The position numbers are program-made. 64,000 nucleotides of DNA, taken from assembly GCF_056712565.1 (NCBI RefSeq), contig NZ_CM160072.1; one strand, given 5' to 3'. Every line of letters begins with the position of its first letter. Within the stretch, counting starts at the first letter, position 1. This document shows positions 36,001 through 54,000 of the stretch, piece by piece.

Positions 36001-39000
36001 TGTTGTGACTGTGGCATTATTTCCGTGCAAAGGAGCTGATATGTCTGAAAGACATTTACCTGATGACCAGAGCAGTACTATCGATCCATATCTAATTACC
36101 TCTGTTCGCCAGACTCTGGCAGAACAAGGCGCAGCATTACAAAACTTGTCTAAACAACTGGATTCCGGGCAGTACCAGCGTGTCCTTAATTTGATAATGA
36201 ACTGTAAAGGGCACGTTATTCTTTCGGGAATGGGTAAATCAGGGCATGTCGGTCGTAAAATGTCAGCGACGCTGGCCTCTACGGGTACGCCTAGTTTCTT
36301 TATTCATCCTGCAGAAGCTTTCCATGGCGATCTGGGCATGATTACGCCTTACGATCTTCTGATCCTTATTTCTGCCAGCGGTGAAACGGATGAAATCCTC
36401 AAGCTAGTTCCTTCACTGAAAAATTTCGGCAACCGAATTATCGCCATTACCAATAATGGAAATTCCACGCTGGCGAAAAATGCTGATGCCGTGCTGGAAC
36501 TCCATATGGCGAATGAAACCTGCCCGAATAATCTTGCACCAACAACGTCTACCACGCTGACGATGGCGATCGGCGATGCGCTGGCGATTGCCATGATCCG
36601 CCAACGCAAATTTATGCCGAATGATTTTGCGCGCTATCACCCGGGCGGTTCATTAGGTCGTCGCCTGCTGACCCGCGTTGCTGATGTCATGCAACATGAT
36701 GTTCCTGCGGTACAGCTGGATGCGTCATTTAAAACCGTGATTCAACGTATCACCAGCGGATGCCAGGGAATGGTGATGGTAGAAGACGCAGAAGGTGGGC
36801 TAGCGGGCATTATCACCGACGGTGACCTGCGTCGCTTTATGGAAAAAGAGGATTCTCTGACATCCGCCACGGCTGCGCAGATGATGACACGTGAACCGCT
36901 GACGCTACCGGAAGACACCATGATCATTGAAGCGGAAGAAAAAATGCAAAAACACCGTGTCTCAACGTTATTGGTGACCAACAAGGCAAATAAAGTCACT
37001 GGCCTTGTGCGCATTTTCGACTAATTAAGCAACGGGGTTCGAGAGGTTAGTCTCTCATTGAGTTTGCGCCCCACTGAAACTTTGATAATCGTTACATGTT
37101 GATAAAAGTGAAGTCTGCCGTATCCTGGATGCGTGCTCGTCTGTCTGCCATCTCACTGGCAGATATCCAAAAACACCTGGCGAAAATCATCATTCTGGCA
37201 CCGATGGCGATGCTGCTGATCTATCTGGCTATCTTCAGCCAGCCTCGCTATATGAGCGAGTCGAAAGTCGCCATTAAACGCTCGGATGATTTAAACAGCG
37301 GCAGCCTGAATTTTGGTCTGCTTCTGGGTGCCTCTAACCCCAGTTCCGCAGAAGATGCTTTGTATCTGAAAGAGTACATCAACTCGCCGGATATGCTGGC
37401 GGCGCTGGATAAGCAACTAAATTTTCGTGAAGCATTTAGCCACAGCGGGCTCGATTTTCTTAATCATCTTAGCAAGGATGAAACCGCAGAAGGATTCCTG
37501 AAGTACTACAAGGACCGTATCAACGTCTCGTATGACGATAAAACCGGATTACTGAATATTCAGACGCAGGGCTTTAGCCCGGAGTTTGCGCTTAAGTTTA
37601 ACCAGACCGTGCTGAAAGAGTCAGAGCGCTTTATCAATGAGATGTCACATCGCATCGCGCGTGACCAGCTTGCCTTTGCAGAAACGGAGATGGAAAAGGC
37701 ACGCCAGCGTCTGGACGCCAGCAAAGCGGAATTGCTCTCTTATCAGGACAACAACAACGTTCTGGATCCACAGGCACAGGCACAGGCGGCGAGCACGTTA
37801 GTCAATACGCTGATGGGCCAGAAGATCCAGATGGAAGCGGATCTGCGTAACTTGCTGACGTATCTGCGTGAGGACGCCCCGCAAGTAGTGAGTGCGCGTA
37901 ATGCGATTCAGTCATTGCAGGCACAAATCGATGAAGAACAAAGCAAAATCACTGCGCCACAGGGTGACAAGCTAAACCGTATGGCAGTGGATTTTGAAGA
38001 AATCAAATCAAAAGTAGAGTTCAACACCGAGCTGTACAAACTGACCCTGACCTCCATTGAAAAGACCCGTGTAGAAGCGGCTCGTAAGCTCAAGGTGCTG
38101 TCAGTGATCAGTTCGCCACAGTTGCCGCAGGAATCGTCTTTTCCAAATATCCCTTATTTGATCGCCTGCTGGTTACTGGTGTGCTGCCTGCTGTTCGGCA
38201 CCCTGAAACTGTTGCTGGCTGTTATTGAAGATCACCGAGACTAACGCTGTCGCTGAATGAGTTTGTGATGAAATTATTTAAATCAATTTTACTGATTGCC
38301 GCCTGTCACGCGGCGCAGGCCAGCGCGGCCATTGATATTAACGCTGACCCAAACCTTACAGGAGCCGCGCCGCTTACCGGTATTCTGAACGGGCAACAGT
38401 CGGATACGCAAAACATGAGCGGCTTCGACAATACCCCGCCGCCCTCACCGCCGGTGGTAATGAGCCGTATGTTTGGTGCTCAACTTTTCAACGGCACCAG
38501 CGCGGATAGCGGTGCGACGGTAGGATTCAACCCTGACTATATTCTGAATCCGGGTGATAGCATTCAGGTTCGCTTGTGGGGTGCGTTCACCTTTGATGGT
38601 GCGTTACAGGTTGATCCCAAAGGTAATATTTTCCTGCCGAACGTTGGTCCGGTGAAAGTTGCTGGCGTCAGTAATAGTCAGCTAAATGCCCTGGTCACAT
38701 CCAAAGTGAAGGAAGTATACCAGTCCAACGTCAACGTCTACGCCTCCTTATTACAGGCGCAGCCAGTAAAAGTGTACGTGACCGGATTTGTGCGTAATCC
38801 TGGTCTGTATGGCGGTGTGACGTCTGATTCGTTACTCAATTATCTGATCAAGGCTGGCGGCGTTGATCCAGAGCGCGGAAGTTACGTTGATATTGTGGTC
38901 AAGCGCGGTAACCGCGTGCGCTCCAACGTCAACCTGTACGACTTCCTGCTGAACGGCAAACTGGGGCTTTCGCAGTTCGCCGATGGTGACACCATCATCG

Positions 39001-51000: not shown

Positions 51001-54000
51001 TAACATTTTCACGACCGGTTAAACTTCCTTGAAATCCACCAGCCAATCCAACGGGCCATGAAATTTTATGTTCTGTAATAATGTTCCCACTATCAGGACG
51101 ATCTATACCACCAATTATCCGAAGTAAAGTTGATTTACCGGCTCCATTTTGACCAATCAGGGCAATGTTATAGCCTTTAGGAAAAATAATATTCAAATTT
51201 TTAAAAACATAATGCCGCCCAGTGGGCGTGCGATAAGACTTCGTCAAATTCTCAATCTTAATCATGATGTCAGCATTGCCTCTTCACGCGTTCGGTATAA
51301 TGCCAGGCCGATGAACAGGGTGACCAGAGTAAACATTGCAAGGTAGTTCAGACTCACGCCTTCACTGATATAGCCAGGCATAACTGCCTCGCGGCTTAAC
51401 TCCACAACATGCACTAATGGGTTCCAGAGTAGATATGACCAGTATTGTTTTGGAATCGAGTGTAGAGGGAACATGATGCAGGAGATGAAATACAGCGGCT
51501 TAAGCAGTATCGGCAGGACCTTTTGCATTTCAGGAAAGGTTTTACCAACGACCATAAATATTAAGCCGACGCCACATGAAAGAATGATTAACAAACTCCA
51601 GGTGAGCACAAGTTGTAAAAAGTTTGTAATTTCGAAATATTCGCCTGTCATCCAGACGATAAGCATGAGCAAAATATAAACAGCAACGTAAATCAGTGTC
51701 TCAAGCAGTGCACGTGCAATGATCGTATCGATGGGTTTTACTGGTCGATAATTAAACAGTCCCTGGTTCGCTTCAATAGCACCAATAGAACGTTTGCTAA
51801 TACTACTAAAGATAAAAAAGGGAATCAGGCCATTAAGTAAAAACACCGGGAACGAGATGTCTGGCATAGTGCGGTGCATAACGTAACCCAAAATTCCCAA
51901 CAGTATCAGCAAATGCGCGGAGGGTTCAAGAATCGCCCACAAATACCCCAGACGAAACTTACCAAAGCGTGTTCGTATTTCTCGTAGAAATAATGCCTCT
52001 ACGGTGACTTTCTGAACTTCAAATCCACTTCTTGCCATTTGATGATGTGATCCTAATCTCTTCAGGTACGCTACCGCCCTTGGCTTAACAGCTACCAATA
52101 CACTGGAGGTAATACTTGTTTGTAACTGGATAAAATTTACTCAGACGGTTTGACCTTTTTAATAGCCGCAAAAAAATTTCAGCAGAAATTATTTCCGCAG
52201 GGATAAATAGATCTATTTCCGTCTCGTTTCTTCTAATCCATTCTTCAGGCATGAATGTATTCGGTCTTCTGGTAATTTCAGAAAACTGGCCGTTTTAGAA
52301 TGCAGAGTTAATTTCTCAGGAAATTATTTTTTGTTATTACTGTTAACTACTTGATTATAATATCCCCTATGGATTTTATGCGTAACAACACTTGCAATCT
52401 GTTTCAAACCAGAACGCACGCGATTGATTACCAATAAATTATTCACCGAGAAACTATTTCCCTATTTAAAATTCACTCGTGTACTTCTTATTTATATCTA
52501 CAGCCCCCTCTTTACAGCCATATTTGTGATTTATATCACATTTAAATGGTGTTATTTAAGTTGCATCAATAATCCCGAAGGTAATTATTTTCGTCGATTA
52601 AAATATACATCTTGATTATTTTGTGTATTTATTTTAACCAGTGTTACAACCAACACCATCCCTCAGTAGATATACCTGAGCAGACATTTCTTAAAATCGA
52701 CGAATAGTTTCCCTGGAAATTATTATGCTTATTTGAAATTCCCTTTCTGATTATCTCCTGTAATTTTACTAATTTCCAGGCTACACAAAATACAGATCAC
52801 ATAAGAATTATCCTATATGTTTTGACCTATCAATTGTTACTCAATGATTTATTACAACTATTAATAATCATAATGTATCAAAACACTTAAGCATCTTTAC
52901 AGTCTTAGAAAGATGTCGATTAACGAAGGCTACATGGTGAAAAACAGGTTCCTTCAGTGTTACCGAATATTCCGTGGTGGTCTGGAGGGAGATAATTCTT
53001 GCTACATCGAAACTCAGCCCGGTGAGCGGGTTTGACAGTTCCGCACTCACCATTGGGCTAAGGGTTATCAGGTGGGGTTAAGGAAATGGCAATACCTACC
53101 CCCGTCCAAACTCCAGCCGCTGCACATTCACCATCCCAGGCTTCTCAGCAGCACTGACATCAATTTGTGTCACCCGCAGCGCATATTTTTCATCCAGTGC
53201 GTTTAACCATTTCAGAAGGTCATTAAACACCACAGGTTCTATCCAGACCTGAATATTCTCCCCACGCTCGGCTATCCGCTTGATGGCCACCGAGTGCGCG
53301 GAAGCACTGTCACTGATGACCCGCGATACCTGCGCAGGCGTTGTTGTGGCAGATTTTCGCGCTGCAATAATATCCGGCGCGGCGTTCTTCAGTCGGGTGT
53401 TCATTGCCACCAGCTGTTGCAACATCGTCTCCTGTTGTTCTATCCGTTCGCTCAACGGCTGCCAGATGAGGACGTAATATCCGACGCTAAACAGGAACAC
53501 CACCGCTGCCAGTAACATGCCCTTTTCGCGCGGAGAACGCCCCGCCAAGTGTTGTGTCAGCCAGTGTTCGCCACGGCTTAACTGGCGTTCACGCCATTGC
53601 TGAAAATAGTGAATAAATTTATCGCGTAACATGTTATTTCCTCCGCAACGTTACGCCGCCGGAAACCGCATCACCCTCTTTCTGTAACGCGTCCTGTTGC
53701 ACAACATAATCTGCCGCCAGTGCGCTACGCAGTTTGTCGAAACTGGCAAAGTTCGCGGCCCGCAACTGAAGGTGGAGCGTCTGGCGTTTTTGATCAAAGG
53801 TGAAACCACGCATTTCGATGTCGGAAAGTGATGCTGATTTCAGGGTGCTGGCTATCGCTGACAACTCGGCGAGCAGCCGGGTATCATCGGCCTGCGGGCG
53901 ATATTTTTTCAGCGCCATCGTCACCTGGGAACGCAAATTCACAATCCGCTTCTGCTCCGGGAACAGTGTTAAGAACTTTTTTCCGCCTGGGTGCGGCTTT

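Follow-up and report, generated by a model that had tools for sequence, protein, structure and literature searches.

We analyzed a 64,000-nucleotide window (the whole stretch of DNA under study, from contig NZ_CM160072.1 of NCBI RefSeq assembly GCF_056712565.1) that contains an Escherichia coli capsule locus. A first-pass annotation made from the sequence alone had described positions 36041-52078 as a complete polysialic acid (K1-type) capsule locus with an ops element. Open reading frame (ORF) calling in that interval gave 14 intact ORFs in two convergent blocks, all of them without an internal stop codon and of reference length. The plus-strand block, region 1, consists of kpsF, kpsE, kpsD, kpsU, kpsC and kpsS in the expected order. 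The minus-strand block is transcribed in the order kpsM, kpsT, neuD, neuB, neuA, neuC, neuE, neuS. Its first two genes, which overlap by 4 nt, form region 3 and are transcribed towards region 2 (the neu genes), which lies downstream of kpsT on the same strand, between regions 1 and 3.

Gene content and composition of the capsule locus

The genes are listed below with their products and the family matches that identify them, obtained from NCBIfam and Pfam scans.

36041-37024, plus strand: kpsF, arabinose-5-phosphate isomerase (Kdo precursor), 327 aa; TIGR00393 KpsF/GutQ, 341.8 bits
37096-38244, plus strand: kpsE, inner-membrane polysaccharide export protein, 382 aa; TIGR01010 BexC/CtrB/KpsE, 494.5 bits (cut-off 437.5)
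38268-39944, plus strand: kpsD, outer-membrane polysaccharide export (OPX) protein, 558 aa; Pfam Poly_export and SLBB
39954-40694, plus strand: kpsU, CMP-Kdo synthetase, 246 aa; NF009905 3-deoxy-manno-octulosonate cytidylyltransferase, 387.8 bits
40691-42718, plus strand: kpsC, two-module Kdo transferase extending the poly-Kdo linker, 675 aa; Pfam Capsule_synth, 350.8 bits in three stretches
42753-43958, plus strand: kpsS, Kdo transferase starting the linker on the lipid acceptor, 401 aa; Pfam Capsule_synth, 303.8 bits
44108-45337, minus strand: neuS, alpha-2,8 polysialyltransferase of the K1 type (Asn52), 409 aa; Pfam PF07388, 152.4 bits
45327-46562 (RefSeq start 46475), minus strand: neuE, membrane-anchored accessory protein of the polymerase/export complex; Pfam DUF6716, 56.2 bits
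46468-47643, minus strand: neuC, UDP-GlcNAc 2-epimerase making N-acetylmannosamine (ManNAc), 391 aa; TIGR03568 NeuC_NnaA, 441.1 bits (cut-off 235.9)
47640-48896, minus strand: neuA, CMP-Neu5Ac synthetase with a C-terminal GDSL esterase domain, 418 aa
48896-49936, minus strand: neuB, N-acetylneuraminate (Neu5Ac) synthase, 346 aa; TIGR03569 NeuB_NnaB, 456.8 bits (cut-off 399.65)
49933-50556, minus strand: neuD, hexapeptide-repeat sugar acetyltransferase, 207 aa; TIGR03570 NeuD_NnaD, 203.5 bits (cut-off 160.8)
50606-51265, minus strand: kpsT, ATP-binding subunit of the capsule ABC exporter, 219 aa; ABC ATPase family matches
51262-52038, minus strand: kpsM, permease of the capsule ABC exporter, 258 aa; NF050053 KpsM, E-value 9.3e-56, and Pfam ABC2_membrane

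No NCBIfam model matched NeuS or NeuE, and both assignments were supplied by Pfam. KpsS matched NF050054 with an E-value of 3.6e-119 and 398.6 bits, which is under the equivalog cut-off of 600. Within NeuA, the Pfam domains CTP_transf_3 and Lipase_GDSL_2 cover residues 6-233 and 270-407, respectively. The ATG of kpsF (36041) is preceded by AAGGAG, 6 nt upstream. Direct repeats occur 981-984 nt apart inside kpsC (40884-40979 with 41865-41960, and 41269-41292 with 42253-42276; 74-83% identical) and are the trace of two tandem Capsule_synth (Kdo transferase) modules. Apart from this internal duplication, a repeat search of the locus returned only chance AT-rich matches.

Base composition differs among the three regions, with a guanine-plus-cytosine (GC) content of 50.3% in region 1, 29.9% in region 2 and 39.5% in region 3, compared to 46.3% for the whole window. 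The locus has the region 1 gene order, the kpsMT pair of region 3, the low-GC region 2 and the JUMPstart/ops element (described below) of a group 2 (kps) cluster. It also has the intact neuD, neuB, neuA, neuC, neuE and neuS genes of the K1 serotype, together with a K1-allele NeuS carrying Asn52. In these respects the first-pass annotation was correct: regions 1, 2 and 3 are intact, region 2 is AT-rich, and the gene content, order and orientation are those of the group 2 architecture that it had proposed.

Positions 35500-53000 (17,501 nt; 17.5 kb) were compared with reference strains. Each of the 14 proteins is identical to its counterpart in strain S88 (O45:K1:H7), including KpsF (WP_001331698.1) and, for NeuE, the 382-aa version; neuA has one synonymous nucleotide difference. 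The 14 RefSeq protein accessions of S88 recur in EV36, a K-12/K1 hybrid that serves as a laboratory K1 reference and in which most genetic work on the K1 capsule has been done. The window differs from EV36 at 3 of the 17,501 nt (35732, 48318 and 52441), with no change to any protein. The difference at 48318 is synonymous and lies in neuA, 52441 is in the kpsM leader, and 35732 is upstream of PR1, the region 1 promoter; S88 differs additionally at 35743. Overall, identity over the 17.5 kb is ~100% with genomes labelled O1:K1:H7 or O2:K1:H7, S88, EV36 and the type strain ATCC 11775. Phage K1F, which is K1-specific, lyses EV36, and antibody against polysialic acid recognizes the antigen that this strain makes (PMC2408645). 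From these data, the locus is almost certainly wild type and complete, a group 2 capsule locus of the E. coli K1 (alpha-2,8 polysialic acid) type. Part of the 17.5-kb query is matched by 1834 of 5426 complete E. coli genomes, and the neu region is found in only 328 of them.

NeuS and the K1 or K92 question

Whether NeuS is of the K1 or the K92 type had been described in the first-pass annotation as a question that only alignment could decide. Alignment resolves it to K1. The neuS gene is 100% identical in DNA to that of UTI89, ATCC 11775 and an O2:K1 avian pathogenic E. coli (APEC) strain, and its protein is identical to S88 NeuS, which has the same RefSeq accession as NeuS of EV36. This exact protein sequence is UniRef entry Q57269_ECOLX and is present on at least 1000 contigs. 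Residues 50-53 read I-S-N-L, so that position 52 is Asn, the residue with which the enzyme polymerizes in alpha-2,8 linkage alone; the same residues in strain SMS-3-5 read V-V-H-L, giving His52. According to the statement in PMC13094856 that cites Keys et al. 2013, the H52N substitution in K92 NeuS is by itself enough to convert a K92 capsule to K1. A K92 allele would have His52 and about 87% nucleotide identity to K1 neuS, whereas the window has Asn52 and a neuS that is 100% K1. Judged by these alignments, NeuS is of the K1 type and not K92.

To place this allele among other E. coli, neuS was surveyed in the 5426 complete genomes. The 328 carriers fall into 310 with at least 99% identity to the window, 4 with 90-99% and 14 with 80-90%. 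SMS-3-5 is an example of the last group and is K92-like by sequence criteria only (His52 and 86% nucleotide identity), with no serotyped K92 reference in the alignment. Its neuS is 86.3% identical to that of the window in nucleotides and 82% in amino acids, with 75 of 409 residues different. In the rest of regions 2 and 3, the neuB, neuA, neuC and neuE genes of SMS-3-5 are 98.1-99.9% identical in DNA, and the NeuD, KpsT and KpsM proteins are identical. A 2026 outbreak report comparing K92 with K1 gives 87% identity for neuS and >98% for the remaining neu genes (PMC13094856). The SMS-3-5 pattern, in which neuS identity is low and that of the other neu genes is high, therefore reproduces the published one. 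It should also be noted that the K1 assignment is independent of the SMS-3-5 comparator.

The His52 allele belongs to a separate protein cluster at 90% identity, with 154 members. The 90%-identity cluster of the K1 allele also lists NeuE proteins (e.g., WP_000197078.1), which is probably a clustering artefact from fused or read-through gene calls with no bearing on the window. Divergence between the K1 and His52 neuS alleles is mosaic: the ends are 95-98% identical, an island at nucleotides 370-492 is 94% identical, and the remainder is about 79-80% identical, which suggests past recombination. The 4 of 328 genomes with neuS at 90-99% identity may be mosaics or deletion variants. Among solved structures, the polysialyltransferase of Mannheimia haemolytica (PDB 5WCN) is a relative of NeuS (residues 43-393, E-value 1.6e-38).

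Transcriptional signals and locus boundaries

Three non-coding features accompany the genes.

52067..52105, minus strand: JUMPstart motif (Rfam RF01707), the final 12 nt of which (52078..52067) are the ops sequence GGCGGTAGCGTA
35590..36040, plus strand: PR1 promoter region, position inferred from distances in PMC8960920
52039..52915, minus strand: region 3 leader with the PR3 promoter, ~741-nt 5' untranslated region, position inferred from PMC8960920

The ops element is the loading site of RfaH. As the first-pass annotation had noted, it is located in the leader of kpsM: the 64-kb window has a single copy of GGCGGTAGCGTA, at 52078..52067 on the minus strand, which is the sense (non-template) strand of kpsM. 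Even with up to one mismatch allowed, 0.15 matches per window are expected by chance. The element falls inside the match to the Rfam covariance model RF01707, which scores 58.5 bits against a gathering score of 35 (E-value 7.2e-11) and covers the model in full length (1-38). The gap between ops and the kpsM ATG (52038) is 28 nt, the same distance at which a review of group 2 capsules places ops before the kpsM start (PMC8960920). Downstream, on the same strand, are ~8 kb of kpsMT-neuDBACES. An ops 12-mer with its GGCGGTAG core in the leader, on the non-template strand and followed by a long operon, is the arrangement of an RfaH/ops operon.

Two more GGCGGTAG cores are present in the window, one at 43298-43305 (minus strand), antisense in kpsS, and one at 7391-7398 (plus strand) inside pgtB. 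Neither extends to the 12-mer, and the total of three is within chance (1.2 expected). The core in kpsS is on the same strand as the transcript of regions 3 and 2, downstream of neuS. An 8-mer is expected at such a frequency by chance (1.2 per window).

Promoters were placed by published distances only, because consensus sigma-70 scans of the PR1 and PR3 regions gave counts not above those of shuffled sequence. PMC8960920 locates the PR1 transcription start 225 bp before kpsF and lists an IHF site at +140 together with H-NS sites spanning -224 to +32; by this distance, PR1 +1 would map to about 35816 in the window. The IHF consensus WATCAANNNNTTR is found at 35703-35715 and at 35957-35969, the latter at ~+142 of the mapped start. 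Window-wide, the number of IHF consensus matches is not significant (5 found, 4.2 expected), and it is only the placement of the two PR1 sites that fits the literature. With PR1 positioned in this way, the difference from EV36 at 35732 is at about -84, inside the published H-NS II footprint.

In PMC8960920, PR3 lies 741 bp before the start codon of kpsM and H-NS leaves footprints from -135 to -21 and from +141 to +219, so the PR3 start would map to about 52779. A TATTTT hexamer at 52792-52787 would be correctly spaced for this start. The kpsM leader has a GC content of 33.6% and contains a further IHF-consensus match at 52344-52356 (minus strand), which is probably a chance match in AT-rich DNA. 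No intrinsic terminator was detected in the convergent kpsS/neuS spacer, where terminator-scan counts were no higher than in shuffled sequence.

These positions bear on the extent of the locus. The interval 36041-52078 given in the first-pass annotation runs from the kpsF ATG to the 5' end of the ops 12-mer. It covers the coding part and ops but leaves PR1 and the PR3/leader region outside. The functional locus is longer, and includes PR1 (~35.6-36.0 kb) and the kpsM leader with PR3 (to ~52.9 kb).

Regulatory steps shown in other strains suggest how these signals would act here. PR1 would drive region 1, and PR3 would drive regions 3 and 2 as one leftward transcript. The ops/JUMPstart element in the kpsM leader would load RfaH, and this would let RNA polymerase continue from kpsMT across region 2, which is AT-rich and would be coated with H-NS. 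Read-through into region 2 of group 2 clusters needs RfaH that has been loaded at ops (PMC8960920). Chromatin immunoprecipitation sequencing (ChIP-seq) in strain CFT073 detected RfaH downstream of the kps ops and H-NS-StpA filaments covering the locus, and RNA polymerase was lost along the kps operon when RfaH was absent (PMC9765446). The 30% GC of region 2 fits this RfaH/H-NS picture from CFT073. It is very unlikely that the changes at 35732 or 52441, or the GGCGGTAG core antisense to kpsS, alter capsule regulation or the handling of convergent transcripts in this lineage.

Predicted function, alternative readings and related systems

Family assignments and established biochemistry together suggest the pathway encoded by the locus. 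NeuC would convert UDP-GlcNAc to ManNAc, NeuB would condense ManNAc with phosphoenolpyruvate to give Neu5Ac, and NeuA would activate Neu5Ac to CMP-Neu5Ac. O-acetylation of the monomer is the predicted target of NeuD and of NeuA's esterase domain. CMP-Kdo would be provided by KpsF and KpsU, and the poly-Kdo linker would be built on its lipid acceptor by KpsS and KpsC. NeuS, aided by NeuE, would then extend the linker with sialic acid in alpha-2,8 linkage only, and the chain would cross the envelope via the ABC transporter KpsMT, KpsE and KpsD. NeuE is membrane-anchored and needed for export, and is dispensable when NeuS is overproduced (PMC2408645). Group 2 capsules are polymers anchored by a lipid and poly-Kdo, with expression off at 20 C and on at 37 C (PMC8960920).

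Two alternatives concern the polymer itself. The locus could be of the K92 type, with a bifunctional NeuS making polysialic acid in which alpha-2,8 linkages alternate with alpha-2,9 linkages. K1 and K92 loci do not differ in gene set, and their neuDBACE and kpsMT genes are near-identical, so the two types cannot be told apart by gene content alone. However, NeuS of the window is identical to that of serotyped or phage-typed K1 strains, has Asn52 rather than His52, and is 75 of 409 residues away from the His52 allele, in a separate 90%-identity cluster. We therefore regard a K92 locus as refuted at the sequence level and consider it extremely unlikely. A region 2 encoding a non-sialic capsule, or a sialylated structure that is not a homopolymer, is a still more remote prospect, with a probability close to nil. 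Nothing was found in its favor, and it is refuted by NeuC, NeuB and NeuD, which exceed curated equivalog or subfamily cut-offs, and by NeuS, which matches both PF07388 and the solved polysialyltransferase 5WCN. In addition, region 2 has no further glycosyltransferase ORF. A region 2 matching a non-sialic capsule was the result that the first-pass annotation had named as fatal to its polysialic acid assignment, and with NeuB, NeuC, NeuD and NeuS all in sialic acid families, that assignment stands.

The third alternative accepts an intact locus and proposes that it is silent, or yields no surface capsule, as a consequence of defects outside the window (rfaH, regulators or the lipopolysaccharide core) or of stochastic or thermal repression. 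Group 2 capsules do need unlinked factors for their expression, which is off at 20 C, and none of the genes for those factors is in the window. On the other hand, the 14 genes and ops/JUMPstart are free of lesions, the promoter regions match those of EV36 except at two bases (35732 and 52441), and the same sequence is present in many clinical and avian isolates. A silent locus is thus improbable, and a functional K1 locus is preferred. Nothing in the sequence speaks against this K1 assignment, and the points that weigh on the other side are limits. Expression cannot be read from DNA, and the rfaH, H-NS, SlyA, BipA and IHF genes are outside the window. The PR1 and PR3 positions rest on published distances, and SMS-3-5 is K92-like only in the sense given above. 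Finally, the start of neuE is ambiguous: the ATG at 46562 gives 411 aa and a 95-nt overlap with neuC, while the RefSeq start at 46475 gives 382 aa and an 8-nt overlap. The residue numbers used in the literature for NeuE, which put mutations at aa381 and aa385 ahead of the final 25 residues, agree with the 411-aa ORF.

A mimic of host polysialic acid, the K1 capsule is a principal virulence factor of E. coli causing neonatal meningitis, bloodstream and urinary infections and avian disease. An intact K1-type locus predicts serotype, susceptibility to K1 phages and endosialidase, and poor immunogenicity. The locus itself is already known: it is a textbook example, matches the laboratory reference at essentially every base, and adds nothing new to biology.

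Group 2 clusters have their chromosomal site in a pathogenicity island by yghD/gsp (the pheV region). In the window, the type II secretion operon yghD(gspM)-gspL-K-J-I-H-G-F-E-D-C-gspS2 (53096-64000, minus strand) directly follows the kpsM leader, as in S88. No tRNA gene is present within the 64-kb window, and pheV itself was not seen. A search of the window for the heptanucleotide repeat (AAGACTC)n, which we take to be the neuO repeat, found none, placing neuO outside the window; neuO, responsible for phase variation of O-acetylation, is presumably borne by the CUS-3 prophage, so its absence is expected. Upstream, the island carries the following cargo and mobile-element remains.

3076-9299: pgtP/pgtCBA phosphoglycerate transport genes
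~15748-16961: IS3-family transposase, adjoined by a degraded IS256 copy
16564-16680, minus strand: ALIL pseudoknot (Rfam RF01497, 120.9 bits), the programmed-frameshift signal of that transposase
18355-20403: siderophore receptor gene ireA
30633-31434: cbeA/cbtA toxin-antitoxin pair with CP4-type genes
33129-34664: gene for an EAL-domain protein
35049-35231: IS110 transposase remnant, just before PR1

In the strain APEC E18055 (O2:K1:H7), bases 1-24000 and 35500-53000 of the window each match in a single piece. Collinearity with strain HS13-1 throughout the window was ruled out by a 1-bp indel near 11270 and by the first ~400 bases, which have no unique match; BLAST also indicated ~1.3 kb extra in HS13-1.

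Among known systems, the closest are the K1 clusters of EV36 and the RS218 lineage, S88, UTI89, APEC O1:K1 and O2:K1 strains, which have the same 14 genes in the same order with the same JUMPstart/ops, and differ by 3-4 nt over the 17.5 kb. In S88, the yghD-gsp junction downstream of the locus is also the same as in the window. K92-type loci (SMS-3-5, and the outbreak strain O77g:K92:H18; PMC13094856) have an identical gene set, with KpsM, KpsT and NeuD identical, and in the kpsM leader of SMS-3-5 the final 74 nt of the 80 that precede the ATG match the window exactly, JUMPstart/ops included. In SMS-3-5, two transposase (insertion sequence) remnants separate kpsS from neuS, whereas the kpsS/neuS spacer of the window is clean and 149 bp long; SMS-3-5 also has an IS200/IS605 tnpA-tnpB pair, located upstream of its kpsM leader. 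In the group 2 clusters of K5, K2 (CFT073), K4 and K15, regions 1 and 3 and the RfaH/ops read-through from PR3 into region 2 are conserved, while region 2 is serotype-specific. More distantly, the polysialyltransferases of M. haemolytica A2 (5WCN) and Neisseria meningitidis group B share Pfam family PF07388 with NeuS and belong to other capsule loci.

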